The notes under the pieces: model-generated | What the model was told of the DNA's origin: nothing | The model's database searches: none | Seen by the model: the letters and a program-made list of their open reading frames with translations, nothing else | Origin: a plasmid | Length of the DNA: 64,000 nt | Assembly (NCBI RefSeq): GCF_054482595.1 | Contig: NZ_JBTHVH010000001.1 | Direction: 5' to 3' (one strand) | Shown: positions 3,410 to 64,000 of the stretch, one piece after another | Numbering within the stretch: the first letter of the stretch is position 1 | Layout: every line of letters begins with the position of its first letter | Translations under genes and position numbers: made by a program

Positions 3410-4672
3410 ATGAGCACTTCAGCACAAAACCAATCAATCGAAAATGTATGTATCCCTGATGTCCTGAATGCCGGTATCCCGGCCATTATCCAGAACATCC
3501 GGGCCGCGCAACGCCGCGTTAGTTGTGATGACCTCACAGCACGTTTTTTTGATAATGCGGTTCAGTCAGCGGAGATGCTTCACGCACAGCTTATTGATGT
3601 TTATAACGCAGAAGCTGATAGCCATAACTCCCTGGTAGATGCAGCTGAAAATATGCAGTTGGATCTCGGTCTGAAGGGTAAAGAAATTGAAGAGCTTCAG
3701 CTGCAAATTGAACATTTGAAACGCCAGCAACAGGACGCGATCGACGATGCGACGCATGACGCCAACCAGCGTGCTGATAATGCCGAACGTATAAGCATTG
3801 AGCTGGAAACAAAACTCAATGAAATGACCGCGATGGTTGAACTGCGGAACTCACAGATTTCAACGCTAAAATCTCAATATAAAGAGATCATGAAACTTGA
3901 TCCTTTTAACCTTGAGAAACGCTATAACAAAGCTAAAAGCGAGCGACAGGAACTGCGTAAGCAGGTCGCCGACCTTAACCAACAGCTCAAAAAAACTATT
4001 AAAGATGCAAGCGAAGCGCGCGTGGCATTTGCTAATAAAAAAGCAGAGGTTACCGCGCTGGTTAATGAGAATGCCAAATTTGCGACGCTCAAGAAGGAAA
4101 TGTATGGCATTACTGAGCGCCGTTTCCCTGCAAGCAAACTTCATCCGACGTTAGGGCAAATCTCCTTCTTCCCGCGCCTCCTGGCTTATGGGATCTCATC
4201 GCCTAAAGAGTTCAATAACGAGCGTCCTTATATCGTTTCTAAACTGGACTTTGCTTATCAGTTCTGCTGCGACATGGGCTATGCCATTGATATCCGAATC
4301 AACGAATGGTTGATGCCAAACTTCCAGCCGCTGGCCATTTTCCGCGAGTTCCAGCCGGAAGGTTGGGTAGAGTTCTTCCATGAATTGATCTGTAAAGAGA
4401 TGGAAAGCCGCCGCCCGGAACTGGTCCGCCGTGTCGAGTGGGCGCAAGAGGTTATGTTGGCAGATGCAGAGCTGCCGTTCGAACCGGAATTTATTGATGA
4501 TCTGGCAGCTAAAGGGCTGCATACCCTGTTTGATGTGGTTACCCGCCGTCATGAGCAGTTGGTTGTCGAATTGGGTTTAGAGGAAACAGCGGCAAGAAGA
4601 CTTCTCGATGTTTGCTATGCACGTAGCGATGCATGGGAAAAAGAGAACGGCGGCACTATTTACGTTCGCTGA
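3410..4672 (+). CDS. coiled-coil protein (420 aa)
   Basis: Long ORF, heptad-rich central region (EELQLQIEHLKRQQQ...), followed by terminator. Confidence 0.6.
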   Translation: MSTSAQNQSIENVCIPDVLNAGIPAIIQNIRAAQRRVSCDDLTARFFDNAVQSAEMLHAQLIDVYNAEADSHNSLVDAAENMQLDLGLKGKEIEELQLQIEHLKRQQQDAIDDATHDANQRADNAERISIELETKLNEMTAMVELRNSQISTLKSQYKEIMKLDPFNLEKRYNKAKSERQELRKQVADLNQQLKKTIKDASEARVAFANKKAEVTALVNENAKFATLKKEMYGITERRFPASKLHPTLGQISFFPRLLAYGISSPKEFNNERPYIVSKLDFAYQFCCDMGYAIDIRINEWLMPNFQPLAIFREFQPEGWVEFFHELICKEMESRRPELVRRVEWAQEVMLADAELPFEPEFIDDLAAKGLHTLFDVVTRRHEQLVVELGLEETAARRLLDVCYARSDAWEKENGGTIYVR

Positions 4673-18291: not shown

Positions 18292-18308
18292 TTTGCTCTA
18301 ATAAATTG
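18292..18308 (+). promoter_or_regulatory. C1 operator-like site upstream of icd/ant module
   Basis: TTTGCTCTAATAAATTG, 15/17 to consensus. Confidence 0.6.
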
Positions 18309-18438
18309 TGTTTTTTAACTACCGATGTTACATTGAACCTGACCTCTTGCGCCTTGAGGCATTTTCGGTTTATGCTTATCAGGCACCTCAGTAAAACGGG
18401 TGCCGGGATTGGCCTCCCGCTTAAGTCTAAGGCGATAC

Positions 18439-18462
18439 AGACGCCGCTCGCGTCTTTTTTTT
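18439..18462 (+). terminator. terminator-like hairpin inside the ant leader
   Basis: agacgc cgctc gcgtct followed by T7 run. Confidence 0.45.
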
Positions 18463-18479
18463 GTATCGGCGTACACGCA

Positions 18480-18600
18480 CACCTCTACAATGGTGGGCTG
18501 TATGGGGCTACCTTCGGGTAGGCTGGTTACCTTGGACGCCAGTAAGGCCAACTCCGTACAGTCCACCGCCAGCAAGATTGGTCTCTTCTGCGGTGGTTAC
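18480..18600 (+). ncRNA. candidate c4-like antisense RNA region (boundaries not resolved)
   Basis: UUCG-loop hairpin ggctaccttcgggtaggc; CCTTGGACG (18530..18538) near-complementary to GTCTAAGG at the icd SD. Confidence 0.25.
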
Positions 18601-18627
18601 ATACCAACGTCTAAGGAGGCTGCCAAT

Positions 18628-18849
18628 ATGGCTACTATCCCTACCCCAACTCATCCTGAATTTATCTGGCGCTTTTACTCCTGCCAAAAACGTCACTATC
18701 ACTTCGTTATTGCACCGACAGAAGATGAGGCACGTTCTCAGCTTCCTGACGCCCCATGTATTTTCTCTGCCCGTTTTTCCACTGATTCACGCAATTCTCT
18801 CAGTTACTGGTGCCTCCCTGTTAACGCTTCTGCTCAGGAGGGACTATGA
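18628..18849 (+). CDS. icd: Icd-like small protein (73 aa)
   Basis: ORF whose stop overlaps ant start (ATGA); AGGAGG SD. Confidence 0.55.
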   Translation: MATIPTPTHPEFIWRFYSCQKRHYHFVIAPTEDEARSQLPDAPCIFSARFSTDSRNSLSYWCLPVNASAQEGL

Positions 18850-19964
18850 GAACATCGTTAGTTACCCGTGAAGAGATGATCGAGGCAATTGAACAGCACA
18901 CTGCCTGTATCAGTACCAGGGATATACCAGGCGTTATTGCCAACTACTTCATGATCACCAAACAACTTTACCGGAGAAAGGACAAGAACGCGGTTCACCG
19001 TATCCTGTTGTCTGATATCCGCGAATACCTGCTCGAACAGGGTCATCTGAATTACGCAACCGTCGCAGCCGAATCACGCAAGGAGGCACACAGAATGAAA
19101 GCAACTAACGTTAAATCAGAAAAAATTCATGCACCTTCAGTTCAGGAATCGGAGCTGGTGGTTGTTCAGAATCAGTCTGATGAAATTCCCGTTCTGGAAT
19201 GGCAGGGAGTGCGTGTAGTGACAACCGAGACTCTTGCTAGAGGGTATGGGACAGAAACAATCCGTATTCGCCAAAATCATCATGAGAACAAAGTACGCTT
19301 TGTTGAAGGGAAGCACTTTTTCAAAGTTGAAGGAGAATCATTGCGCGAGTTGAAGCACAGAGTAGCTTTAAACTACTCTGTAAAAATTGCTCGCAATGTT
19401 CGCTCACTCACCCTCTGGACAGAACGCGGCGCAGCCCGCCACGCTAAAATGCTCGAAACCGATCAGGCATGGGCATTCTTTGAAAAACTGGAAGACAGCT
19501 ACTTCCGACAAAAAGAACAGCAACCGATCGCAATCCCCCAAACATTACCAGAAGCCCTACGCCTGGCTGCCGAACTGGCTGAACAAAAGCAGCTTCTGGA
19601 ACAGAAAGCCCACCAGCTAAATCAGCAGCTGGTGGCCGCCGCTCCTAAGGTCGATTTTGCCGACCGGGTATCAGTAGCTAAAGGGATCCTGATTGGGAAT
19701 TTTGCAAAGGTTGTTGGACTTAAGCAAAACGCGCTGTTTGTCTGGTTACGGGAGAACGGCATCCTGATAGCGTCCGGTGGACGTAAAAATGTGCCGTTCC
19801 AGCAGTACATCAACGCGGGGTATTTCACGGTGAAAGAAGTGGTGCTGGATGATGAAGATGGCTACCAGATACGGTTGACGCCTCAATTAACGGGTAAAGG
19901 CCAGCAGTGGTTGACGCGTAAACTGCTCGATGCTGGCTTGTTAAAACCGGTGGCGGCTGAATAA
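18846..19964 (+). CDS. ant: antirepressor (central Rha/ORF6N-like domain, C-terminal KilAC-like domain)
   Basis: 372 aa; C-terminal FADRVSVAKGILIGNFAKVVGLKQNALF resembles KilAC/Ant C-terminal domain. Confidence 0.75.
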   Translation: MRTSLVTREEMIEAIEQHTACISTRDIPGVIANYFMITKQLYRRKDKNAVHRILLSDIREYLLEQGHLNYATVAAESRKEAHRMKATNVKSEKIHAPSVQESELVVVQNQSDEIPVLEWQGVRVVTTETLARGYGTETIRIRQNHHENKVRFVEGKHFFKVEGESLRELKHRVALNYSVKIARNVRSLTLWTERGAARHAKMLETDQAWAFFEKLEDSYFRQKEQQPIAIPQTLPEALRLAAELAEQKQLLEQKAHQLNQQLVAAAPKVDFADRVSVAKGILIGNFAKVVGLKQNALFVWLRENGILIASGGRKNVPFQQYINAGYFTVKEVVLDDEDGYQIRLTPQLTGKGQQWLTRKLLDAGLLKPVAAE

Positions 19965-19968
19965 TGGA

Positions 19969-22001: not shown

Positions 22002-23033
22002 ATGTCCAATTTACTGACCGTACACCAAAATTTGCCTGCATTACCGGTCGATGCAACGAGTGATGAGGTTCGCAAGAACCTGATGGACATGTTCAGGGAT
22101 CGCCAGGCGTTTTCTGAGCATACCTGGAAAATGCTTCTGTCCGTTTGCCGGTCGTGGGCGGCATGGTGCAAGTTGAATAACCGGAAATGGTTTCCCGCAG
22201 AACCTGAAGATGTTCGCGATTATCTTCTATATCTTCAGGCGCGCGGTCTGGCAGTAAAAACTATCCAGCAACATTTGGGCCAGCTAAACATGCTTCATCG
22301 TCGGTCCGGGCTGCCACGACCAAGTGACAGCAATGCTGTTTCACTGGTTATGCGGCGGATCCGAAAAGAAAACGTTGATGCCGGTGAACGTGCAAAACAG
22401 GCTCTAGCGTTCGAACGCACTGATTTCGACCAGGTTCGTTCACTCATGGAAAATAGCGATCGCTGCCAGGATATACGTAATCTGGCATTTCTGGGGATTG
22501 CTTATAACACCCTGTTACGTATAGCCGAAATTGCCAGGATCAGGGTTAAAGATATCTCACGTACTGACGGTGGGAGAATGTTAATCCATATTGGCAGAAC
22601 GAAAACGCTGGTTAGCACCGCAGGTGTAGAGAAGGCACTTAGCCTGGGGGTAACTAAACTAGTCGAGCGATGGATTTCTGTCTCTGGTGTGGCTGATGAT
22701 CCGAATAACTACTTGTTTTGCCGTGTCAGAAAAAATGGCGTAGCTGCGCCATCTGCCACCAGCCAGCTATCAACTCGCGCCCTGGAAGGGATTTTTGAAG
22801 CAACTCATCGATTGATTTACGGCGCTAAGGATGACTCTGGTCAGAGATACCTGGCCTGGTCTGGACACAGTGCCCGTGTCGGAGCCGCGCGAGATATGGC
22901 CCGCGCCGGAGTTTCAATACCGGAGATCATGCAAGCTGGTGGCTGGACCAACGTAAATATTGTCATGAACTATATCCGTAACCTGGATAGTGAAACAGGG
23001 GCAATGGTGCGCCTGCTGGAAGATGGCGATTAG
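22002..23033 (+). CDS. cre: Cre tyrosine recombinase
   Basis: 343-aa protein recognised as P1 Cre across its length. Confidence 0.98.
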   Translation: MSNLLTVHQNLPALPVDATSDEVRKNLMDMFRDRQAFSEHTWKMLLSVCRSWAAWCKLNNRKWFPAEPEDVRDYLLYLQARGLAVKTIQQHLGQLNMLHRRSGLPRPSDSNAVSLVMRRIRKENVDAGERAKQALAFERTDFDQVRSLMENSDRCQDIRNLAFLGIAYNTLLRIAEIARIRVKDISRTDGGRMLIHIGRTKTLVSTAGVEKALSLGVTKLVERWISVSGVADDPNNYLFCRVRKNGVAAPSATSQLSTRALEGIFEATHRLIYGAKDDSGQRYLAWSGHSARVGAARDMARAGVSIPEIMQAGGWTNVNIVMNYIRNLDSETGAMVRLLEDGD

Positions 23034-23420: not shown

Positions 23421-23526
23421 GCACAAAAGAGCGGGTTTGTATTCCGCATCCAATCAATCAAGAAGGAGTATAGCACACAGGTACTGACGTGAAAAAATAT
23501 GATTCGCGATAAACAAAATACCTATC

Positions 23527-23543
23527 ATTGCTCTAATTGAGCC
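23527..23543 (+). promoter_or_regulatory. C1 operator-like site
   Basis: ATTGCTCTAATTGAGCC. Confidence 0.45.
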
Positions 23544-23623: not shown

Positions 23624-24676
23624 TCATTCAGCCGCCACCGGTTTTAACAAGCCAGCATCAAGTAGCTTGCGAGTCAACCACTGCTGGCCTTTACCCGTTA
23701 ATTGGGGCGTCAGCCGTATCTGGTAGCCATTTTCATCATCCAGCACCACTTCTTTCACCGTGAAATACCCGGCGTTGATGTACTGTTGGCGCGGTACGTT
23801 TTTGCGCGCACCAAAAGCCATGAGAATGCCGTTCTGGCGCAACCATGAGAAAAGGGCGTTTTGCTTCAGTCCAACGACCTTTGCAAAGTTCCCGATCAGG
23901 ATTCCATTAGCCACTGATACCCGAACGGCAAAATCGACTTTAGGGGCTGCGGCCACCAGCTGCTGATTTAGCTGGTGGGCTTTCTGTTCCAGAAGTTGCT
24001 TTTGTTCAGCCAGCTCGGCAGCCAGGCGCAGAGCTTCGGGGAGTGTTTGGGGGAGCACTGGAGAAGCAGTGTTAGCCTGCTGCAATTCCTCCAGTTTGTC
24101 GATCAGCGAACGGCGGACCGCTTTTGACTCGCGCGCGGCAACTCGCAGGGCTTGTTTGTAGGTCATGGAGATAGTTTCAGATGTTGTGTTGTTTAATTTT
24201 TGCACTACGAAAATTTCGTAGTACTCACCATCCAGTTCATCCTTAACTCTGGCAATAAAATCATTATTGCGAACTGGTTTTTCGCTGCATAATTTCCGCG
24301 CTTCATTGACCATCTTCAACAATGTTTGGCTGTCTATTGTGTCGCCGCTGTTGGGGATAACATTCACGGCTGGTGCAGTTGTTCCCAAAGACTTCGTAAC
24401 TACAGCGTCTGGTTTGCTTGCTTTCATTCTGTGTGCCTCCTTGCGTGTTTCGGCTGCGACGGTTGCGTAATTCAGATGCCCCTGTTCGAGCAGGTATTCA
24501 CGGATATCGGTTAGCAGAATGCGGTGAACCGCGTGTTTGTCCTTTCTCCGGTAAAGTTGTTTGGTGATCATGAAGTAGTTGGCAATAACGCCTGGTATAT
24601 CCCTGGTACTGATACAGGCAGTGTGCTGTTCAATTGCCTCGATCATCTCTTCACGGGTGACTAATGACGTTCTCAT
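23624..24676 (-). CDS. antirepressor paralog with alternative central domain
   Basis: 350 aa; first ~85 aa and last ~110 aa nearly identical to 18846..19964 product, middle unrelated. Confidence 0.7.
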   Translation of the reverse strand: MRTSLVTREEMIEAIEQHTACISTRDIPGVIANYFMITKQLYRRKDKHAVHRILLTDIREYLLEQGHLNYATVAAETRKEAHRMKASKPDAVVTKSLGTTAPAVNVIPNSGDTIDSQTLLKMVNEARKLCSEKPVRNNDFIARVKDELDGEYYEIFVVQKLNNTTSETISMTYKQALRVAARESKAVRRSLIDKLEELQQANTASPVLPQTLPEALRLAAELAEQKQLLEQKAHQLNQQLVAAAPKVDFAVRVSVANGILIGNFAKVVGLKQNALFSWLRQNGILMAFGARKNVPRQQYINAGYFTVKEVVLDDENGYQIRLTPQLTGKGQQWLTRKLLDAGLLKPVAAE

Positions 24677-24894
24677 AGTCCCTCCTGAGCAGAAGCGTTA
24701 ACAGGGAGGCACCAGTAACTGAGAGAATTGCGCAAATCGGTAGAAAAGCGGGCAGAGAAAATACAGGGAGCATCCGGAAGCTGAGAACGTGCCTCATCTT
24801 CTGTTGGTGCGATAACGAAGTGATAGTGACGTTTCTGGCAGGAGTAAAAGCGCCAGATAAATTCAGGGCGTGCGCAAGGATTGGCATTAACCAT
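24673..24894 (-). CDS. Icd-like small protein, second copy (73 aa)
   Basis: Same architecture as 18628..18849; differs in first ~10 residues. Confidence 0.55.
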   Translation of the reverse strand: MVNANPCARPEFIWRFYSCQKRHYHFVIAPTEDEARSQLPDAPCIFSARFSTDLRNSLSYWCLPVNASAQEGL

Positions 24895-24899
24895 AGTTA

Positions 24900-25205
24900 C
24901 GGCCTCATGTACAGGTTTAACAACCTGCTATCCGCTGCTAAACGGGTGGCAGGACGTGACGGGGTTAGCAGACTGGCGTACATGAAACCAGCAGGCCGAA
25001 GCCTCCCCATCACGCCCCACCATAATTCGGGCGTAACGTGGTTTTACGGACACAAAAATACCGCAATATCGGATATCTGCGGTTGTCCGCATGTACATTC
25101 AGGCTGCTAAACCCGGTCGCAGAATTTGCTACGACGGCGGAACTATAAGCCTGAATGACAGGAAGATCAATAGTCTGGCGTTCAATGGTAGTATTTTTGC
25201 TCCAA
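24900..25205 (-). ncRNA. candidate c4-like antisense RNA region of second module (boundaries not resolved)
   Basis: Leader between operator and icd-like ORF; UUCG-loop hairpin gaggcttcggcct; sequence unrelated to forward-copy leader. Confidence 0.2.
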
Positions 25206-25211
25206 TAAATC

Positions 25212-25228
25212 AAATCTATTAGAGCAAT
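25212..25228 (-). promoter_or_regulatory. C1 operator-like site upstream of second icd/ant module
   Basis: aaatctattagagcaat. Confidence 0.6.
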
Positions 25229-27888: not shown

Positions 27889-30800
27889 TTATGCGTATTG
27901 TTGGATGACGGCCAGAACGTCCGCCACGTTGTGTTTTGTCTCGATAATCCACCAGTTACCCGGGAAATCGCTGTTCTTTGCCTTCGCTGGCAGCCAGCGA
28001 GCGCCGAATTTCGCCTTGATTGCGTCTTTCGCACGGAAAAGAATGCCTTTCATGCCGGACGCCTCCTGAAGCCCAAATACCTCGCCAGCGGCGAATTTTG
28101 GTGCGTACATCATCTTCAGGTCGGCGGTGGATACGCGATAATTCAGACCAAGAGACTGAGCTATGCTGGTGGCATCACCCTGTATTGATGATAACTCTTC
28201 TTGTTTCTCGTTTCTGGCGGCAATTTCTTCCTCCGTGATGTTGCCAAGGGCCAGGTTTATCCGATCAGCGTCGGCCTGTTTCTCTTCATCGGTGCGCCCG
28301 GCAAGAACCGTGTTAATTCTCTGCAATATCTCCACATGATTCTTGCGCATGCTGAGCAATTCCGGCGTAACCTCGTTAAGATCCACCAGCCCAAGGATGG
28401 CAAGGTCGGAAAACATTGATACCAGGTTGTAGGTCATGCGATAGCTGAGTTGGCCATAGGCTGATGGCAACTGCACCGCATCCATTTTATAGGCATCCAT
28501 AAATTTAGAGCCGTCGTTTACGACATCCGCAATTGCCGGTGTGATTTTCCCTGTGGTGGCGGCCTCCCTGATTGCTGTTACCCACGATTGAGTCAGTGCG
28601 GCGACTGCATGATTCAGATTGGCTTCCCGTTCTGCTGCGATGCGCGCGCTTGCTGCGTCCATTGCCTGCTTGATCTCGGCTTTATTGCTGTAAATGCCAA
28701 TGGTGCCAAACTGTGCTGTGGTGATCTCATAATCTGACGCCCGGAACTCATGGGTACCGAAAATGGCATTGGTGACCTCAAGTTCAGAATCCCCGTTACG
28801 AGTAGCCCCCTGGCTTGTTTTCTCCGGCATTCTGGCGATCGCATCCGCTATTTTCTCCTGAATTGCTTCAGGGGATAGCGTATCTCCATATGACGCGATT
28901 ACATCGCCATAATTGGAGCCAAACAGTTCAGTCAGGAATACTTCTGCCAAACGGACCTGGCGGTTATTCCCTTCAGACATCATACCAAGCACCCATTTTG
29001 CAATTGACGACTTCAGCGCGCCGTCACGGCGATCCGGGTAAACCGCATGCTTCAGTGGGTCCGTATAGGTACCAACAAAATCAATGCTATAGCCTGACTC
29101 TGTAGTCTGAACGCCGTATGAGTCAGTGATTTTGATCATGCCGCGCTGCTGGAAACGGTAGAAATCGTCACAGGAAATGATGTCGTTAATCCCGGCGATG
29201 GAGACGCCACCACTGATTTTCTGCATAACAGCATCTTCATCGGGAGTTACATCCACCTGTTTATCCAGCGTCTTCACATCCCAGTTACCCGATTTGGTGC
29301 CTCTTAAGGTAAAGATGATCTCCACGTCTGCGCGCTGGCTGTCGAAGTCCAGCGACTTAATGCGAACGATATCACCGGCACAATCGTAGTATTGGCCTAC
29401 ACGCCATGAGCGATCGCCGATAACAAGGAACTCATTCGCATGGTTAACCAGATCAGGATCAACATCCAGAATGCCTTTATTTATTGCATCCTCCACCAGC
29501 GGGCGCAGGCGTTTGATATCCGTCGCGGCCTTCTGAGTACGGTTCAATAATTTCTCATAGCGGGAGATGGCCTGAGAGATATTAGCCTTGCGCTGAATGG
29601 CGCTTTTCAACGACGCGCGATACTGTGCTAACAACATACGGTCTGTGTGATGGACACTCCCCCAGCGGGCCTTCCAGTCTGCGTTATCCGCTGCCTTGGC
29701 CATTGCCGCCTGTTTGAATTTAGCTACCTCGGCGGTGGTCTTTTCAAGTTCCGCTTTGCTTCGCTCTAATTCAGCGGTAAGTACCTCCACATCCTCGCCA
29801 GCTGCGTGCTGCGCCTTGATGTAGTTCTGAAGGTCGATAGTAGCCTGTTCTTTCTGGCGAGCGCGTTTCGCAGCTTTCGCCTTATCCATTTGAACCTGCA
29901 TCATTGCCAGACGTTCGCCGTCATCCTTCGCGGTATACATCTGCATTTCGATCATGTCATTGGCGTCGGCGTTCTCCATTTCTGACTTATCTGAACGGAG
30001 GATATCGGAGATCCAGCCTGCTTTACGCTTCAGCGTCTTCAGTCGGTATTCATCGAAAGACCCCTTGCCGCAGTAGTAGTGAACGCGAACGCTTGCACGG
30101 TTGGAACCAACTCGGGCACCGCGACCGTTACGCTGTGCGATACTGGCTGGTGTCCACGGCAACGTCAGGTGGTGGATATCCGTCGTTCCTCGATGCAGGT
30201 TGATACCCACCTCTGCCTTTTTGTTGCAGATGATGATCGGAGTCCGGCCCTCCTGGAAGTCGGCTGCAATCTTTTCCAGACCGCCCAACGACATTTCATT
30301 TTGCTGCGCGATATAGGCGTCATACAGAGCCATTTGCTCGTTGTATTTCGCTATCTGTGCATCTGTTGGTTCATCCGGTAGCTCTTTCGGCGGTTTAACC
30401 GCTTTCAGTTTCTTACCGGTTTTACCTGCCTCGGCAACCGTCTGAGCATTCAGGATCCCCACCTTTGAAGGTTCAAGGTTTAGAGCATTGCAGATAATGC
30501 GCTTGAGCTTCTGGTGCTGCGTTTTTTCATCGGTGAAGATGATTTGCTTACCTTCCGGGAAAAACTCCTTCAGCGTGGCGATCAGCTTCGCGTATTTCGG
30601 CGTAACGGGGTGAGTTACGGTCTGTTCGTCAATGCCAAACCTGGCCAGGCGCTTATTCACTTCCTGCTCGAACGCTTCCGGAACCTGCAACTGAATAAAC
30701 TCGCCCTTATCTATCAGGGAGTATTGCGATTGCTGCGTGATTGAATCATCACTGTCGTCGTCTTCGCTGGTGGCTTGTTTAGGCAAACTGTCCGCCAGCT

Positions 30801-33800
30801 GCTGCACCGCATCGGCGTACTCCGGCAGGAAACGATAGGTGATCCGGCGATAGTACAGGTCCATGTCAGTACATACGCGGTCCATATCCCTGATTATTGA
30901 GAAGATCGGACGGGCTTTCTCGTGCTCAATCACGCCATCTTCATTGACCGAGGTCGTTACGCCATTGTTGGCTTTGGCCGCCGCTTCCGCCTGCTGACGC
31001 AATTCTTCATACGCCGCCAGTTGTTCTTCAGTAAGTGGTGCATCCTGCTGGTGTTCGTCCAGCTCCGGGATCTCCACGGTATCCTTAACGTCTTCCGCCG
31101 TTTTAAGCGTTACCCAGCGATGGAATATACCGCGCAGCGCATCAAGGTTTTCAAAGCCCACCAGCGCCATTTTTTCTTCAACTTCACCGCTAATTTTCTG
31201 TACCGTTTCCAGCCTGGTCTTGCCGAAGAATTTAACGAAGTCATCAGGACCGTAGATCCCCATGTTCTGCCAGTATTCCTTCGGCAGAACATGAGAAAGC
31301 ATGTTGTATGCATCGATCGGGGTGTTAACGACTGGCGTTGCAGTCAGGAGAACCGGCCCGCGCCCGCCATTCTTTTTCATCAGGTACGCGTTTTTAATTG
31401 CCATATCTCGCGCCGATTGCGCCACCGCGCTGGTGGGCAGATAGGCCAGTTGTGACGCTTCGCGACCATTTTTATAGCTATTGCGGTAGTTGTGACCTTC
31501 GTCAGCGATCACACTATCGAAGCCCATATCCTCAAAGTACGGATACTTCTCTGCTTTTTCGGTGCCGGTATCTGAATACTCCGACAATACCCGGCGACGC
31601 GCAGCCTCTTTGCGGTGGGAGTCGGAGTCCATTGCGCTGGCTACGCGCCCGGCGGCAACGAAGTCATAAAGCATATCCTGTGCATGCTCATCTACGGTGT
31701 CATCACGTAGCGGAATGCGGGCGTATTGTTCTTTGGTAAACACGACTGCACGGTAATTTGAGTGCGGGATCGCGTTCATCCGCGCCGTGATAGTGGCTTC
31801 ATCTGCCAGCTTAAGAGCATCGCGCATAACGGGAGTGCCATCTGCACCAACGACAGGTTTACCGTTCTCATCGAGCACCGGCACCAGGCGAATCTGATCG
31901 CCATCCATCAGCACATCAAGACCGACGAACAGGTAGTTACTGAATGCCTCTTCACTCAGAAACTCTTTTGCTTCGTAATACCAGTTTTCCAGCACTGATT
32001 TAGGCACTACATACGCAGTACGGGTGGAACGACCGTTCTCATAGTTGAACGCCTCAAGCGCCAGCGCGGTCGTGGTTTTACCCAGCCCGGTACCGAAGCC
32101 CAGGATGCCGCGCCCATCTTCGGACAGTCGGCGCACCTCGCTATTCTGGTAATCAAATGGCTGTCGCTTACCGCTTAATCCCTTCAACCCAAGCGGATCG
32201 CCAGAGTGTTCATACGGGATATTGCTATTGAACACATCGTTGTATTTGGCAACCAGCTCATCGTAGCGATCGTGCGTCTTGATCCACGTATTGAACTGGT
32301 CCTCAAGCAGTGCCATCTGCTCGCGGTAGCCGTTCGCCGTCGCGCTATCTTTGCCACCGATACGCGCACCATTGAGATACTTTTCCAGCTGTGCCGGGAA
32401 CCCGGTCGCGTTTTCACCTGATTTACGGTCCCACTCGTAGCGGATCTCGCCTGTTTCTTTATCCTTGCGCTGGACGACACCGTATCGGTGCCCGACGAAC
32501 AGACCATCACCACCGTGATAGGTGTCAGAAACCATTTCGTCGCCTTCCAGCTGCACTGACTGCACATAGCGCAGATCCGGATAGCCGTTTTCCTGCAAAA
32601 ATTCCAGAATCACGGAACGGTCGAACCAACGGCTATTGAGCTTAAACCGGATATTCTCTGCTGGCGTCTTGATGCGCTTCTCTTCGATCGCTGCCAGCTG
32701 ATTAAGGACGTTGTTCTTTACTGGACCGTCGGGGAGCGTGGCGAGGAATTCCTGTTTTGGAGCCACTATCTCGTTAATGTCGCCGCTGGTGGCGCGGGCG
32801 AACGGAACAATCCCGCCATACGGTGAAACCGCAATGCCAGGGGTGCTGGCCAATAAATTAAGCAACTCGTCATCACTGGCTGGCAGTTCGCCGGTAAACG
32901 CAAGGCGGAAATCATCGAGCTGGATTGGATCGCGGGTAAGATCGCTATAGAGATAACGCAGGGTGTCCTGATAGCTGGTGGAGTCATAACTGGCGCTGGA
33001 ATCATGCGTAACCAGCTTTCCTGTCAGCTCGTCAGAAATAGTGCCATCCAGCTTAATTGCACCACGGAAAGCAAACCAGGCGCGCGCACCGCTCCCCGAT
33101 AATTTCGCTATCGGACCGCGACCGGGGTTACCAAAACGGTCAATCTCTGCCTGCAAACGGGATACCAGAGAAAGGCGCTGCTGTTCGATTTGTTCAGCAC
33201 TATGCCCGGCGGCCTTCATGTCCTGATATTCAATTAACATCCGGCCAATCATCGCTCCGCGATACAAGCGTTCACGGTATTTTTCAGGCTGGCTGTTAAT
33301 CCAGTCCACCAGCTGCACCATATCGTCGCTGATTGATGTGGTGTACTTATCGCGGACATTTGCCATCTGGGTAAATGTCATACCGAGACGGCCTTCTGTT
33401 GTAGTCAGGTTACGCTGAAGAGCCTCCCAGCTATCCGCACCATAACTGGCAACCTCAATCTTCAGCTCCTTCCCGGCATCAGCTTCAATCCAGCGACCAC
33501 CAGCATATTTTTGCCATACGCCATTAATCAGGCGCATTTCCCCTTCATCAACAACATCTGCGGTCGGTGACGGTTCAGCCATATCGAGCAAAGACCAGTC
33601 GATACGACTTTCGAAACGATGAATCAGCTTCGCTTTAAGAGCCTGGTTATCAATCTGCCCGTCGGCACGAACCTCAATACGCCCCTGGAATCCCTTCTCC
33701 TGAGTGCCATGAACAAACCGGCGGCCGTCCTTTTCAAACCACTTGCCAGAAATAAACGTTGGCCAAAGCACATTTGCCGATTCAAGAGTGTCTTCATCCA

Positions 33801-34656
33801 CCAGGGGGATTTTCTCAGCCATCTCCGCCGGATGTTTGCGCATCAGCACCACGTCAACGACCGTACTGGTCCCGTTTGCGTCAAAAGTACCGGTAGGCAA
33901 GCGGTGGGCACCAAGAAATTCAGCTTTCCGTGATAGGCGCAGGCGTAACCGCTTCATGTTTGAACCTGAAACAATGGACGGCGGCACAATCACGCACATG
34001 AATCCGCCTGGCTTTATCTTGTCCAGCATGCGGAGCATGAAGTAAGAACCCATGTCCGTTTCTTCTGCGTAAGGCTTATCGATGTTGCGTGTGTTATCAC
34101 GACCACCGAACGGAACGTTACCCACAACATGGTCGAATGAATCGTTAGGCGTGCTTACAGCCAGTTGTTCGAACGGGGAAATCTGTACGCTGTCTTCCGG
34201 ATGTAACAGCTGGTTTATACGACCGGAAACACTGCTGATCTCAGTCGCGGTCATCACCGTACCAACCGGTTTTGTCTCATTAAAAACGCCGGTGCCCGCC
34301 GATGGTTCCAGAGTGTTACCTACGTCCGCGCCGTAGAGCTTCATGATCTCCCAGACACCTTCAGCGATCGGCTTTGGTGTGTAATATTCGGAGACGGACC
34401 CGCCAATGCCACCTTCACCGGTGTACCCAGCCAGGATCTGGCGCTGTTCATCTGTCAGTGTCGCGCCGTCCACCAGCGAATTAAGCAAATCTATCGCCTT
34501 CTGATTCGCCTCACGGCGCAGTCGGTCATAGCTTTTGCCTTCCACCTTTTCCACGCCGTATTTAATCGGCGCTCGGTGAGATGTTATTGCCCTAATGTAT
34601 TTCAATATTTCGCTGACACTTGAACAGCGAAACACCCCCATAGATAGCTTGTTCAT
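27889..34656 (-). CDS. darB: DarB antirestriction protein (methyltransferase + helicase domains)
   Basis: 2255-aa ORF; helicase motifs GFGTGLGKT and DEGHNYRN. Confidence 0.85.
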   Translation of the reverse strand: MNKLSMGVFRCSSVSEILKYIRAITSHRAPIKYGVEKVEGKSYDRLRREANQKAIDLLNSLVDGATLTDEQRQILAGYTGEGGIGGSVSEYYTPKPIAEGVWEIMKLYGADVGNTLEPSAGTGVFNETKPVGTVMTATEISSVSGRINQLLHPEDSVQISPFEQLAVSTPNDSFDHVVGNVPFGGRDNTRNIDKPYAEETDMGSYFMLRMLDKIKPGGFMCVIVPPSIVSGSNMKRLRLRLSRKAEFLGAHRLPTGTFDANGTSTVVDVVLMRKHPAEMAEKIPLVDEDTLESANVLWPTFISGKWFEKDGRRFVHGTQEKGFQGRIEVRADGQIDNQALKAKLIHRFESRIDWSLLDMAEPSPTADVVDEGEMRLINGVWQKYAGGRWIEADAGKELKIEVASYGADSWEALQRNLTTTEGRLGMTFTQMANVRDKYTTSISDDMVQLVDWINSQPEKYRERLYRGAMIGRMLIEYQDMKAAGHSAEQIEQQRLSLVSRLQAEIDRFGNPGRGPIAKLSGSGARAWFAFRGAIKLDGTISDELTGKLVTHDSSASYDSTSYQDTLRYLYSDLTRDPIQLDDFRLAFTGELPASDDELLNLLASTPGIAVSPYGGIVPFARATSGDINEIVAPKQEFLATLPDGPVKNNVLNQLAAIEEKRIKTPAENIRFKLNSRWFDRSVILEFLQENGYPDLRYVQSVQLEGDEMVSDTYHGGDGLFVGHRYGVVQRKDKETGEIRYEWDRKSGENATGFPAQLEKYLNGARIGGKDSATANGYREQMALLEDQFNTWIKTHDRYDELVAKYNDVFNSNIPYEHSGDPLGLKGLSGKRQPFDYQNSEVRRLSEDGRGILGFGTGLGKTTTALALEAFNYENGRSTRTAYVVPKSVLENWYYEAKEFLSEEAFSNYLFVGLDVLMDGDQIRLVPVLDENGKPVVGADGTPVMRDALKLADEATITARMNAIPHSNYRAVVFTKEQYARIPLRDDTVDEHAQDMLYDFVAAGRVASAMDSDSHRKEAARRRVLSEYSDTGTEKAEKYPYFEDMGFDSVIADEGHNYRNSYKNGREASQLAYLPTSAVAQSARDMAIKNAYLMKKNGGRGPVLLTATPVVNTPIDAYNMLSHVLPKEYWQNMGIYGPDDFVKFFGKTRLETVQKISGEVEEKMALVGFENLDALRGIFHRWVTLKTAEDVKDTVEIPELDEHQQDAPLTEEQLAAYEELRQQAEAAAKANNGVTTSVNEDGVIEHEKARPIFSIIRDMDRVCTDMDLYYRRITYRFLPEYADAVQQLADSLPKQATSEDDDSDDSITQQSQYSLIDKGEFIQLQVPEAFEQEVNKRLARFGIDEQTVTHPVTPKYAKLIATLKEFFPEGKQIIFTDEKTQHQKLKRIICNALNLEPSKVGILNAQTVAEAGKTGKKLKAVKPPKELPDEPTDAQIAKYNEQMALYDAYIAQQNEMSLGGLEKIAADFQEGRTPIIICNKKAEVGINLHRGTTDIHHLTLPWTPASIAQRNGRGARVGSNRASVRVHYYCGKGSFDEYRLKTLKRKAGWISDILRSDKSEMENADANDMIEMQMYTAKDDGERLAMMQVQMDKAKAAKRARQKEQATIDLQNYIKAQHAAGEDVEVLTAELERSKAELEKTTAEVAKFKQAAMAKAADNADWKARWGSVHHTDRMLLAQYRASLKSAIQRKANISQAISRYEKLLNRTQKAATDIKRLRPLVEDAINKGILDVDPDLVNHANEFLVIGDRSWRVGQYYDCAGDIVRIKSLDFDSQRADVEIIFTLRGTKSGNWDVKTLDKQVDVTPDEDAVMQKISGGVSIAGINDIISCDDFYRFQQRGMIKITDSYGVQTTESGYSIDFVGTYTDPLKHAVYPDRRDGALKSSIAKWVLGMMSEGNNRQVRLAEVFLTELFGSNYGDVIASYGDTLSPEAIQEKIADAIARMPEKTSQGATRNGDSELEVTNAIFGTHEFRASDYEITTAQFGTIGIYSNKAEIKQAMDAASARIAAEREANLNHAVAALTQSWVTAIREAATTGKITPAIADVVNDGSKFMDAYKMDAVQLPSAYGQLSYRMTYNLVSMFSDLAILGLVDLNEVTPELLSMRKNHVEILQRINTVLAGRTDEEKQADADRINLALGNITEEEIAARNEKQEELSSIQGDATSIAQSLGLNYRVSTADLKMMYAPKFAAGEVFGLQEASGMKGILFRAKDAIKAKFGARWLPAKAKNSDFPGNWWIIETKHNVADVLAVIQQYA

Positions 34657-61071: not shown

Positions 61072-61953
61072 TCAGCGTCCTGAATCGGTATACCCCCATA
61101 CAAAACCAGGTTGGACACTAAGGTCTGATAGCTTTTCAATCCCCACCTGTGGAATGAAGTCGGTAGCCCGAAAGGGCACCCACAGACGGGTATATGCACC
61201 CTCTGTGGACTCCTTTTTATCCTGATTTGGGCATTTATGCGGCGGGAGACGAAGACGCATTTCACCTTTATCGATGTAGCACGGTAAACCATGTTCGAGC
61301 TTTTCATGAGCCAGTCGGATGTGTGCCGCCAGCTTCATAAATTCAGTATCAATGGCCATCCGTTTAATCGTTTCATAACGACGCTCAGCCTGATCTTCAC
61401 GAGTACCGCTAACATCGTTATAAAGCTCACACTGATAAGCGAATTCCCAAAAACGCAAATCAACGATCGCTTCTTTGAATTCCGCGTCGTCTTCAGCTGG
61501 CAATGCTGCACGGCGCATCTCCAGCATTTCCATTGCCCAACCATCAAGCGGCACGATACGCCATTGATAAGGTACTCCCTCTACAGACACCTCAATATCG
61601 TCAATGAAAGGTTCCACTTCCAGGACCTGGATATCTTCAGCCAGAGCATTCATATCGCAATCGTAATAATGCTCTTTACCGCAATGTTTACAGGTGTAGG
61701 TGAATGTCTCGACCGGTGTTTCACGGGAGCCGGTAAATATCCACCATAACGCGGTAATCCGGTCCTGCGCCGTCCATGTCAGGGGATCATGTTTCGCGGG
61801 TTCAGCCAGCAAGGCTTTTAAATACGCCGTTGTCTGTTGTTCTTGTTCCTCCGGTGTTATCGAGTTGAAACGCATCGCATCAGCAATATTTGGCTGACGG
61901 AACTGGATCAATTCAGTTGGCCGCGATGGTAGCGGGAAAAGGGGTAAAAGCAT
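61072..61953 (-). CDS. hypothetical tail-module protein (293 aa), full-length copy
   Basis: ORF downstream of tail-tube-like gene. Confidence 0.5.
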   Translation of the reverse strand: MLLPLFPLPSRPTELIQFRQPNIADAMRFNSITPEEQEQQTTAYLKALLAEPAKHDPLTWTAQDRITALWWIFTGSRETPVETFTYTCKHCGKEHYYDCDMNALAEDIQVLEVEPFIDDIEVSVEGVPYQWRIVPLDGWAMEMLEMRRAALPAEDDAEFKEAIVDLRFWEFAYQCELYNDVSGTREDQAERRYETIKRMAIDTEFMKLAAHIRLAHEKLEHGLPCYIDKGEMRLRLPPHKCPNQDKKESTEGAYTRLWVPFRATDFIPQVGIEKLSDLSVQPGFVWGYTDSGR

Positions 61954-61967
61954 CCTTGCTCCTTAAT

Positions 61968-62579
61968 TCAAAGAGAAAAACTAAAGCCCAGAAGGGAAGC
62001 CAAAGAACTTGAGGATTGGTTAAACGTGCTGTGCAATGCGAAGGTCATTGGGAATGACTTAAATTCCGTAACCTGATCCCGCGCATAGGTGACATCGCCG
62101 GTAGTGACCGGGAATACCGTCATCTCATTTTCCAGTTTGGTTAAGCCGGAAGACAGCAACCGATAAATACGCACATTGAGCAAATATTTAGACGGTATAT
62201 TCCCGGTACCGTCCGGATTGATCACCCGACTTTTTGCCGTCTTAAACCAGTCTAAAACGAGGCCATCAACGGTATCCCTGACCATCATTGTTATCTGCCC
62301 AGGCGAACGCTCCGTTGGTTGAAGGATATTCCCTCCGCCGATTTTAATCGTTTCATATTCGATGCTGTAATCGTGGTAGGTAATGTCTTTGGCAAAGAAG
62401 TCTGCCCCCTCCAGTCCATCAACTTCGACAGAGAACTGCCATCCTTGCGCGAACAGCATTTTGTTCATGATGATTGACGTCAGCTTACCAACTTCCCGCT
62501 CACCAACGCCGGAGCCAAATAATGTCGTCGTTAATGCCGAAGATACATAAGACTTTACTGAAGCAACATTAAGCCCCAT
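61968..62579 (-). CDS. tail tube-like protein (203 aa), copy 1
   Basis: ORF with GAGGGGG SD. Confidence 0.5.
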   Translation of the reverse strand: MGLNVASVKSYVSSALTTTLFGSGVGEREVGKLTSIIMNKMLFAQGWQFSVEVDGLEGADFFAKDITYHDYSIEYETIKIGGGNILQPTERSPGQITMMVRDTVDGLVLDWFKTAKSRVINPDGTGNIPSKYLLNVRIYRLLSSGLTKLENEMTVFPVTTGDVTYARDQVTEFKSFPMTFALHSTFNQSSSSLASLLGFSFSL

Positions 62580-62589
62580 ATCAGCCCCC

Positions 62590-63294
62590 TCACTTCAACA
62601 TGGATGAGAAAAGAACAATCCCCGGGATAATTGCCCTTGTTGCGCTCATTTTCTCTTCCATGTGTGCCGCCAGCTTCATAAATTCAGTATCAATGGCCAT
62701 CCGTTTAATCGTTTCATAACGACGCTCAGCCTGATCTTCACGAGTACCGCTAACATCGTTATAAAGCTCACACTGATAAGCGAATTCCCAAAAACGCAAA
62801 TCAACGATCGCTTCTTTGAATTCCGCGTCGTCTTCAGCTGGCAATGCTGCACGGCGCATCTCCAGCATTTCCATTGCCCAACCATCAAGCGGCACGATAC
62901 GCCATTGATAAGGTACTCCCTCTACAGACACCTCAATATCGTCAATGAAAGGTTCCACTTCCAGGACCTGGATATCTTCAGCCAGAGCATTCATATCGCA
63001 ATCGTAATAATGCTCTTTACCGCAATGTTTACAGGTGTAGGTGAATGTCTCGACCGGTGTTTCACGGGAGCCGGTAAATATCCACCATAACGCGGTAATC
63101 CGGTCCTGCGCCGTCCATGTCAGGGGATCATGTTTCGCGGGTTCAGCCAGCAAGGCTTTTAAATACGCCGTTGTCTGTTGTTCTTGTTCCTCCGGTGTTA
63201 TCGAGTTGAAACGCATCGCATCAGCAATATTTGGCTGACGGAACTGGATCAATTCAGTTGGCCGCGATGGTAGCGGGAAAAGGGGTAAAAGCAT
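62590..63294 (-). pseudogene. chimeric truncated duplicate of 61072..61953 gene created at duplication junction
   Basis: First ~212 codons identical to the 293-aa gene, then 22 unrelated codons read from the repeat-unit end. Confidence 0.5.
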
Positions 63295-63308
63295 CCTTGC
63301 TCCTTAAT

Positions 63309-63920
63309 TCAAAGAGAAAAACTAAAGCCCAGAAGGGAAGCCAAAGAACTTGAGGATTGGTTAAACGTGCTGTGCAATGCGAAGGTCATTGGGAATGACT
63401 TAAATTCCGTAACCTGATCCCGCGCATAGGTGACATCGCCGGTAGTGACCGGGAATACCGTCATCTCATTTTCCAGTTTGGTTAAGCCGGAAGACAGCAA
63501 CCGATAAATACGCACATTGAGCAAATATTTAGACGGTATATTCCCGGTACCGTCCGGATTGATCACCCGACTTTTTGCCGTCTTAAACCAGTCTAAAACG
63601 AGGCCATCAACGGTATCCCTGACCATCATTGTTATCTGCCCAGGCGAACGCTCCGTTGGTTGAAGGATATTCCCTCCGCCGATTTTAATCGTTTCATATT
63701 CGATGCTGTAATCGTGGTAGGTAATGTCTTTGGCAAAGAAGTCTGCCCCCTCCAGTCCATCAACTTCGACAGAGAACTGCCATCCTTGCGCGAACAGCAT
63801 TTTGTTCATGATGATTGACGTCAGCTTACCAACTTCCCGCTCACCAACGCCGGAGCCAAATAATGTCGTCGTTAATGCCGAAGATACATAAGACTTTACT
63901 GAAGCAACATTAAGCCCCAT
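63309..63920 (-). CDS. tail tube-like protein (203 aa), copy 2
   Basis: Identical to 61968..62579. Confidence 0.5.
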   Translation of the reverse strand: MGLNVASVKSYVSSALTTTLFGSGVGEREVGKLTSIIMNKMLFAQGWQFSVEVDGLEGADFFAKDITYHDYSIEYETIKIGGGNILQPTERSPGQITMMVRDTVDGLVLDWFKTAKSRVINPDGTGNIPSKYLLNVRIYRLLSSGLTKLENEMTVFPVTTGDVTYARDQVTEFKSFPMTFALHSTFNQSSSSLASLLGFSFSL

Positions 63921-64000
63921 ATCAGCCCCCTCACTTCAACATGGATGAGAAAAGAACAATCCCCGGGATAATTGCCCTTGTTGCGCTCATTTTCTCTTCC

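Follow-up and report, generated by a model that had tools for sequence, protein, structure and literature searches.

How many RNA immunity specificities does a phage-plasmid hold when it carries more than one c4-icd-ant operon? The question arises from a plasmid stretch of 64,000 nucleotides (nt) (contig NZ_JBTHVH010000001.1, assembly GCF_054482595.1; hereafter the window), part of a P1-like (Punavirus) E. coli phage-plasmid in which we found two such operons: the forward operon F (plus strand, ~18292-19966), placed between pacB and c1, and the operon R (minus strand, ~25228-23624), placed between a gene for an MBL-fold protein and cra/cre. C4/immI is the textbook case of heteroimmunity set by an antisense RNA, so far with essentially two alleles, those of P1 and P7. 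Here we analyse the region 24895-25211, which is exactly the R leader, running from just past a C1-operator-like site to the base preceding the icd start codon. We are fairly confident that this region is the leader of an additional P1/P7-type immI operon (c4-icd-ant1/ant2) adjoining cre, and that the two C4 RNAs of the window each repress their own operon.

The R leader is laid out like a P1/P7 immI leader

As a ruler for the individual elements we used the P1 GenBank annotation of a1, b1, c4, a2 and b2; RNA sequences are given 5′ to 3′. At the 5′ edge of the R leader, alignment predicts a C1-operator-like site (ATTGCTCTAATAGATTT, 25212..25228, minus strand) that is identical at 15 of 17 positions to the annotated P1 operator Oc4/Op51 (AATGCTCTAATAAATTT). 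A predicted site of this kind, TGCTCTAATA(A/G)A, opens both leaders of the window and can be aligned with Oc4 of the P1 annotation. A promoter scan identified a sigma-70 promoter-like site (-35 TTGATC, 17-nt spacer, -10 TATAGT; 25142..25170, minus) matching the annotated P1 promoter P1c4/P51b (TTGACC ... TATAGT) column for column. The upstream a1/b1 target element (25096..25148, minus) was recognised by the Rfam c4-a1b1 model (RF03163, 55.5 bits versus a gathering score of 46.7); it contains a1 (UUAGCAG, 25104-25110, minus), and b1 (GUACAUG, 25090-25096, minus) lies just 3′ of the match. Further on, a hairpin with a U-tract (CCGCAGAUAUCCGAUAUUGCGG UAUUUUUGUG, 25051..25082, minus) has the look of a terminator at the 3′ end of a short, IsrK-like RNA. 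Termination at this position is presumed; the strict terminator scan made no call at 25051..25082, and a match to IsrK (RF01394) at 25054-25135 takes in the hairpin and U-tract and, at 46.3 bits, is below the gathering score of 50.

The C4 antisense RNA itself is 77 nt long (GGUGGGG...GCCACC, 24945..25021, minus) and corresponds to an Rfam RF01695 match at 24942-25027 on the minus strand (71.7 bits versus a gathering score of 45). Its minimum-free-energy (MFE) fold has -45.3 kcal/mol, with z = -5.5. In the predicted fold the recognition sequence b′ (UUCAUGUAC, 24978..24986, minus) forms the loop of hairpin 2, and a′ (CUGCUAA, 24965..24971, minus), which is the same as the a′ of P7, is the single-stranded junction leading from hairpin 2 to the closing stem. 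The a′ junction is an exact complement of a1 and of a2 (UUAGCAG, 24935..24941, minus), the latter located directly 3′ of C4 and homologous to the annotated P1 a2. The b′ loop is predicted to form 7 base pairs (bp) with b1, its exact complement, and 9 bp with b2 (GUACAUGA, 24903..24912, minus), which is homologous to the annotated P1 b2 and lies over the icd Shine-Dalgarno (SD) sequence (GAGG). All four target sites are therefore perfectly complementary to R's own a′ and b′. This arrangement is not expected by chance: the R leader contains two exact 7-nt 'site/reverse complement/site' triples, and none of 1000 dinucleotide shuffles contained two (mean 0.014). In the MFE fold of the full leader (z = -6.4) the a1/b1 region pairs with the a2-b2 spacer, enclosing C4. 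Taken as a whole, the R operon has the layout of P1/P7 immI, with a predicted operator, a promoter, c4, icd coupled to ant1, and a nested ant2.

The F leader encodes a second C4 RNA on a different scaffold

The F leader, with all elements on the plus strand, starts with the C1-operator-like site TTTGCTCTAATAAATTG (18292..18308), placed by alignment with the P1 and P7 operators. Its upstream RNA element is of the IsrK type (RF01394, 60 bits versus a gathering score of 50; 18383..18460), the c4-a1b1 model scoring only 20.5 bits on this leader. Within the element lie a1 (UUGGCCU, 18409-18415) and b1 (GUCUAAGG, 18425-18432), and the terminator scan called an intrinsic terminator after b1 (18439-18462). 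The F C4 RNA (18492..18569; fold of -41.6 kcal/mol, z = -4.1) corresponds to an RF01695 match at 18486-18573 on the plus strand (75.9 bits versus 45); its fold displays the b′ loop UACCUUGGAC (18528-18537) and a′ AAGGCCAA (18544-18551). The targets at icd are a2 (UUGGUCU, 18578-18584) and b2 with the SD (GUCUAAGGAGG, 18609-18619), with cognate duplexes of -8.3 and -11.3 kcal/mol, respectively; the a′-a2 pairing has 7 bp and the b′-b2 pairing 8 bp, with one G-U in each.

We compared the leaders by aligning the operons with each other and, in a four-way alignment, with the annotated P1 and P7 sequences. R and F are ~47% identical in a global alignment (42-57% per 60-nt bin); R is 83-85% identical to the P1/P7 leaders, and its C4 scaffold is that of P7 except for the b′ loop. 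The original prediction, made from the letters of the window, had called the minus-strand leader unrelated to the forward one. This holds for the low identity but not for the organisation, since both leaders share a C1-operator-like site, an upstream a1/b1 or IsrK-type element, a C4 RNA above the Rfam gathering score and a2/b2 at the icd SD. It had also framed the minus-strand module as the odd copy, and here the alignment turns the picture round: R is canonical and P1/P7-like, and F is the divergent copy, on another C4 scaffold. The proposal that each leader encodes a C4-like RNA was borne out by the Rfam scores and by folding. Both C4 RNAs are structured, and their MFE and centroid folds have the three-way topology of P1/P7 C4 (long closing stem, tetraloop hairpin 1, hairpin 2 and junction), with 9-10 nt in the hairpin 2 loop that holds b′ and 7-8 nt in the single-stranded junction that holds a′; the recognition elements themselves are not the same.

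The IsrK-family matches in both leaders, above threshold in F and sub-threshold in R and each with a terminator-like 3′ end, point to another possible mode of action. The leader could be mainly a cis structural switch of the kind described for Gifsy-1 isrK-orf45-anrP, in which the full-length transcript adopts a form that is not translated, the short a1/b1 RNA trans-activates icd-ant, and C4 is chiefly structural rather than a diffusible repressor; consistent with this, the full R leader is predicted to fold in a way that resembles the inactive IsrK 'structure A'. We consider this unlikely, because in P1 and P7, whose leaders are so similar to that of R, C4 is reported to be a trans-acting repressor that sets heteroimmunity (PMC8546580, PMC12197685). 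The cis-switch and C4 mechanisms are, moreover, not mutually exclusive, and in either case specificity would lie in the same a and b sequences.

The two C4 RNAs differ in both recognition elements

In P1, a′ is CUGUCAA and b′ is CACUAAC, with UUGACAG as a1/a2 and GUUAGUG as b1/b2; in P7, a′ CUGCUAA and b′ CACAAUC are matched by UUAGCAG and GAUUGUG. R combines a′ CUGCUAA (a1/a2 UUAGCAG) with b′ CAUGUAC (b1/b2 GUACAUG), and F has a′ GGCCAA (a1/a2 UUGGCC / UUGGUC) and b′ CCUUGGAC (b1/b2 GUCUAAGG). P1, P7, R and F are alike in that b2 abuts or overlaps the icd SD. R is of neither the P1 nor the P7 specificity type: it has the a′ of P7, but its b′ differs from that of P7 at 4 of 7 positions and differs from that of P1 as well. 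F is likewise of neither type, a′ and b′ both being different. P1 and P7 are an experimentally heteroimmune pair, according to the accounts of Citron & Schuster 1990 given in PMC12197685 and PMC6906374, and, judged from the recognition sequences, the difference between R and F is larger than that between P1 and P7.

Predicted duplexes of b′ with the SD-proximal region separate cognate pairs (-10.0 to -11.5 kcal/mol) from non-cognate ones (mean -3.1). For the two modules of the window, cognate b′-b2 pairing amounts to -10.2 (R) and -11.3 kcal/mol (F), versus -1.5 and -4.0 for the R/F crosses (-3.1 and -4.0 with a longer target). The a′ junctions discriminate poorly in unconstrained duplexfold predictions, with off-target pairing of -8.5 to -8.8 kcal/mol at a generic UAGCAGG site between a2 and b2; limiting the target to the a2 region gives a clearer cognate preference. 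Since F has a different a′ and b′ together with targets that match them, each C4 should repress its own operon only. The earlier suggestion that the two modules have different specificities is thus supported computationally.

A competing explanation is that R and F are redundant duplicates with overlapping specificity, that the differences between their leaders are neutral or a by-product of mosaicism, and that either C4 represses both operons. The icd body and the N-terminus of ant1 are indeed 87-100% identical between the modules, showing ongoing exchange, and the a′ junctions have the off-target pairing just described. We nevertheless find this explanation improbable: the b′ loops are unrelated and their cross pairing is weak compared with the cognate duplexes, and the homogenised tract has its limit at icd codon 10, immediately 3′ of the recognition sites. 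Variation among related modules, to which we turn below, also bears on this point.

Pairing nucleotides covary among related C4 modules

Two IMG/VR scans with Icd queries yielded 148 loci, which together with P1, P7 and the two modules of the window make a set of 152 C4 modules. C4 RNAs were called with Rfam and with a relaxed pattern combined with a fold filter, a strict pattern having overlooked a third scaffold (28 loci). The set contains 16 a′/b′ combinations on three scaffolds. The P1/P7-like scaffold carries six b′ (CACUAAC, CACAAUC, CAUGUAC, CGUAAGU, CAUUCGU and CACAAGU) and two a′, with 11 of the 12 possible combinations seen; on the third scaffold two b′ and two a′ occur in all four combinations, and the F scaffold is represented by one type only. 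The cis a1, b1, a2 and b2 sites were complementary to the a′ and b′ of their own module in 605 of 608 checks. The b′ of R, CAUGUAC, recurs in IMG/VR: 19 modules have it, and in every one of them b1 and b2 match. The R type (CAUGUAC with CUGCUAA) is present seven times in the set, mostly next to cre, and CAUGUAC is joined to the P1 a′ in 12 modules.

The 88 P-type leaders vary essentially only in six short islands, namely a1, b1, b′, a′, a2 and b2, with hardly any nucleotide diversity in the other ~250 nt. Such a pattern is what one would expect of a diversifying specificity that resides in the pairing nucleotides alone. With the variation of the population located in the pairing sites and the scaffold invariant, the pattern is the opposite of neutral drift, which further argues against R and F being redundant duplicates. 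Covariation is also seen in the scaffold: among the three scaffolds, 11 pairs of the closing stem and hairpin 1 are changed on both sides and none is broken. Hairpin 2 is taken from single-sequence folds; RNAalifold did not find it when 21 unique C4 sequences were aligned with MAFFT, an alignment in which the scaffolds are offset by one column at this hairpin.

Three mismatched modules look like recombinants. In L094 (IMG/VR contig 2565956613_000015), b′ CAUUCGU has a matching b1, but b2 is the P1-type GUUAGUG and does not match the module's own C4; this module may be an immunity-insensitive (vir-like) recombinant. In L147 and L150 (IMG/VR, third scaffold), a1 comes from the other a allele and a2 matches the module's own a′, so that the breakpoints apparently lie between a1 and the rest of the leader.

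The icd and ant genes of R are a mosaic

In the ORF (open reading frame) list, the R leader is followed by an icd-like ORF of 73 amino acids (aa) (24673..24894, minus), the stop codon of which overlaps the ant1 start (AUGA). Its product shares 81% of its residues with Icd of P1 and P7 and 88% with the forward copy. R ant1 (350 aa; 23624..24676, minus) aligns to ant1/ant2 of P1 and P7 and contains a nested in-frame ant2 start at 24427, preceded by AAGGAGG; in the R Ant protein, Pfam finds ANT/KilAC at residues 238-339, that is, KilAC alone, without ORF6N. On the plus strand, F icd (18628-18849) is followed by F ant1 (18846-19966; ant2 start at 19095), for which Pfam reports ORF6N as well as ANT/KilAC. 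An NCBIfam search returned no family for either Ant protein. Just past the R ant stop, towards cra/cre, a plus-strand sequence seen by eye at ~23525-23540 (TCATTGCTCTAATTGA) resembles the C1 operator core (TGCTCTAAT).

The two Icd proteins differ in residues 2-9 (MVNANPCAR versus MATIPTPTH) and in the SD region, and from residue 10 onwards they are identical save for one substitution, in agreement with the original prediction that the copies part only in the first ~10 codons and the SD. The accompanying claim that the downstream coding sequence is near-identical stands in part: it is correct for the 3′ part of icd and the ant1-specific N-terminal region (87-100% identity from icd codon 10), and fails in the region of the Ant2 N-terminal domain (~24413-24065), where R and F are 25-43% identical before identity rises again in the C-terminal KilAC domain. 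R is therefore a mosaic, with a P1/P7-like leader, an F-like icd 3′ part and ant1 N-terminus, and a P1/P7-like Ant2 body. The tract at R 24420-24893 (minus) is 87-100% identical to F 18655-19104 (plus) and 62-82% identical to P1 and P7. By its sequence, this tract looks like a gene-conversion-like patch that starts at icd codon 10.

Genomic setting, slots and stacking

The window contains ORFs sized like P1 C1 (19997-20848, minus, 283 aa), Cre (22002-23033, plus, 343 aa) and DarB (27889-34656, minus, 2255 aa), and in matching plasmid records the corresponding places are annotated as pacB/terminase, repressor C1 and a site-specific integrase. BLAST searches against phages and plasmids returned P1, P7, RCS47, JL22 and vB_EcoM-673R5 and, in addition, hundreds of E. 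coli plasmids, with about 800 matching records in PLSDB. Among complete records, pYZMc17-1_100k (NZ_CP123256.1) comes closest, with 99.6% identity over 7.7 kb spanning both modules; NZ_CP058881.1 has an R module that is 100% identical and is without the pacB-c1 module. The F insertion is the one already present between pacB and c1 in RCS47, JL22 and 673R5, and a pacB-c1 insertion has been mentioned for pTZ20_1P (PMC6906374). Neither R nor F holds the canonical immI position (sim or upf50 to kilA-repL). R lies outside it, in a variable region that replaces res-mod; this region has been termed "RD-1", and icd-ant homologues were noted there in pSvP1 (PMC6906374).

A position off the canonical sim-kilA site, adjoining cre and within a known variable region (PMC6906374), would also be expected of a non-functional remnant carried along with the accessory-gene insertion in RD-1. 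That R is such a remnant is, however, highly improbable. Its ORFs are intact and include the nested ant2 start as well as AUGA coupling as in P1; the promoter and the predicted operator have been preserved; the four target sites are perfectly complementary to its C4; and its b′ allele recurs in other modules with matching b1/b2. Seven E. coli plasmids of unrelated origin, moreover, contain the R module at 100% identity, and one Shigella plasmid contains it at 99.9%. The identical plasmids annotate the R icd ORF as Icd-like, and public records label these regions merely 'Icd-like' and 'antirepressor', without RNA genes, an annotation gap that the present analysis corrects.

Modules of the survey occupy three slots. 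P1/P7-like scaffolds predominate in the canonical slot, where a minority of modules are on the third scaffold; modules between pacB and c1 are on the F or the third scaffold, and those next to cre mostly have b′ CAUGUAC. The window stops ~2 kb short of the canonical slot. In NZ_CP123256.1 this slot contains a P7-type module (b′ CACAAUC, a′ CUGCUAA) and in NZ_CP058881.1 a module with b′ CACAAGU and a′ CUGUCAA. Since the canonical slot is filled by a further module in these relatives, the source genome probably carries three modules, the third being of the P7 type and located just beyond the window.

Among the 26 contigs with a length of 80 kb or more, at least 10 carry two to four modules; since the hits were retrieved in part, this count is a minimum. 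One near-complete genome of 97 kb (IMG/VR contig 2703718869_000013; loci L023, L028, L110 and L127) has four c4-icd-ant modules, two of which have the common b′ CAUGUAC and unlike a′ (CUGCUAA versus CUGUCAA), a natural case in which to see whether a′ alone can keep specificities apart. Another contig with four modules (IMG/VR 2698536372_000019, locus L040) contains an F-F tandem, with C4 RNAs at 2831-2920 and 4397-4486, 1.57 kb apart; this is the sole co-resident pair of the same type.

At its far end the window contains a perfect (100%) tandem duplication of 1341 bp (61319-62659 and 62660-64000, reaching the window end), each copy holding a 203-aa ORF on the minus strand. The related plasmid NZ_CP058881.1 has one copy of the segment (95474-96767). 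The repeat may be genuine or may have been introduced by the assembly.

How the two operons would be regulated

By analogy with P1, transcription of the R operon would start at the P51b-like promoter downstream of the C1-operator-like site, with C1 and a constitutive promoter in control. The transcript would comprise first the a1/b1 element, ending in the terminator-like hairpin, and then the 77-nt C4, which would be set free from the leader transcript, presumably through RNase P. In P1, C4 is excised by RNase P, and the processing and trans repression of the P1 and P7 RNAs are known, as far as the account in PMC8546580 goes. Once released, b′ (UUCAUGUAC) and a′ (CUGCUAA) would pair with b2 and a2 of the same operon's mRNA and cover the icd ribosome-binding site. 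Translation of icd would then be blocked and the translationally coupled ant1/ant2 would remain unexpressed, probably with a contribution from Rho-dependent polarity. Ant, once made, would inactivate C1. The upstream a1/b1 copy with its terminator is the counterpart of the Gifsy-1 IsrK RNA, and a plausible competitor of a2/b2 for C4. We assign functions to a1, b1, a2, b2, icd and Ant according to the P1 GenBank annotation and PMC8198154, PMC8546580 and PMC12197685; the mechanism as a whole is proposed from homology, the sequence, fold, complementarity and covariation having been computed here.

Several observations weigh against this account. First, R shares a′/a2 with P7-type modules, and if a′-a2 pairing alone represses, R and P7-type C4 RNAs would cross-talk; the canonical immI of the closest complete relative, NZ_CP123256.1, is of the P7 type and has the same a′ as R. 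Second, the Ant proteins may differ in their targets: the F Ant has a different middle domain (ORF6N), so the protein target of the two modules may not be the same. Third, the triple test that exceeded chance for R gave p of about 0.08 for F with G-U allowed, which is not significant for F as a single sequence; the test has no power here because the F pairings include G-U, and F is supported by the position of its elements in the fold and by its relatives. Finally, 31 of the 32 pairs of co-resident modules consist of unlike types, a finding that was considered and rejected as a sign of selection on orthogonality: a null model that preserves slots gives almost the same, with 1.5 identical pairs expected versus 1 observed. 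As each slot keeps its own repertoire, these pairs are no independent evidence of selected orthogonality.

Even so, the sequences imply that this phage very probably carries two independent RNA locks on antirepressor genes, and likely three. A prophage of this kind would be immune to superinfecting relatives of each specificity that it carries, and, as an infecting phage, it would escape residents that lack one of its C4 types. Extending this to the group, we tentatively suggest that P1-like phage-plasmids use a combinatorial two-site RNA 'barcode', with at least nine b′ and at least five a′ alleles, each having an exact counterpart at two target sites, and stack two to four mutually orthogonal modules in fixed slots as a multi-lock system of immunity and anti-immunity; we regard this as possible rather than probable. 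If it is true, a prophage silences invaders of every type that it carries, an invader needs just one unmatched module to inactivate C1, and an arms race follows. The allele switches at three sites, with mismatched intermediates in only 3 of 152 modules, could reflect templated conversion between inverted and direct copies of the sites.

The natural genome analysed here carries at least two modules with C4 RNAs that, by prediction, do not cross-pair, and the allelic series, in which the pairing nucleotides alone vary, is a ready-made natural set of orthogonal RNA repressor/target pairs. It makes testable how many mismatches and which of the two sites set specificity, whether stacking broadens superinfection immunity and counter-immunity among the phage-plasmids by which resistance genes spread in E. 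coli, and how coordinated changes at three sites evolve.

Comparison with known systems

Much of the framework is already known: C4 RNA and its targets, P1/P7 heteroimmunity, the Rfam families C4, c4-a1b1 and IsrK (PMC2864571), and the extra icd-ant or ant insertions at both slots (PMC6906374). In the searchable full text, which has the classical P1/P7 papers outside it, we found no account of the C4 content or of a non-P1/non-P7 specificity of the extra modules, of an allelic series with covariation at three sites, or of stacked non-pairing modules in one genome. Stacked orthogonal modules seem to be undescribed so far.

The extra ant or icd-ant insertions of RCS47 and pTZ20_1P (pacB-c1) and of pSvP1 (RD-1) occupy the same two slots as the modules of the window, and the F module is 92.5% identical to RCS47 and 98.6% to phage vB_EcoM-673R5. 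PMC6906374 gives these insertions as ORFs, without C4 RNA or specificity analysis, and the RCS47 region is annotated as 'ant' only.

Gifsy-1 isrK-orf45-anrP of Salmonella (RF01394; PMC4825925) is similar to the operons described here in having a terminated upstream small RNA, a structured segment and a short ORF AUGA-coupled to an antirepressor. IsrK has been shown experimentally to trans-activate translation of the downstream short ORF and antirepressor (PMC4825925). Long-range pairing of the upstream RNA with the ORF region has been shown for Gifsy-1, whereas in the R leader it is only predicted. The systems also differ in that the characterised activity of Gifsy-1 is trans-activation by the short RNA, C4-type repression not being the focus, and in that Gifsy-1 is a lambdoid prophage in which the output leads to an antiterminator circuit.

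P1 immI (NC_005856.1 48140-49731; a1, b1, c4, a2 and b2 annotated) corresponds to R element by element in its architecture and in the C4 fold, with ~83% leader identity; a′ (CUGUCAA), b′ (CACUAAC) and the genomic slot are all different. The closest match is P7 immI (NC_050152.1 50853-52448). Its leader is ~85% identical to that of R, the C4 scaffold, a′ and a1/a2 are identical, and R and P7 also agree in operator, P51b-like promoter, icd-ant1/ant2 organisation and Ant2 body. Unlike R, P7 immI lies between upf50 and kilA-repL and not next to cre, and identity to R falls to 62-82% in the icd 3′ part and the ant1 N-terminus, where R instead matches F. The difference that would set the two apart in immunity is in b′ (CACAAUC in P7 versus CAUGUAC in R), with b1 and b2 changed to match.

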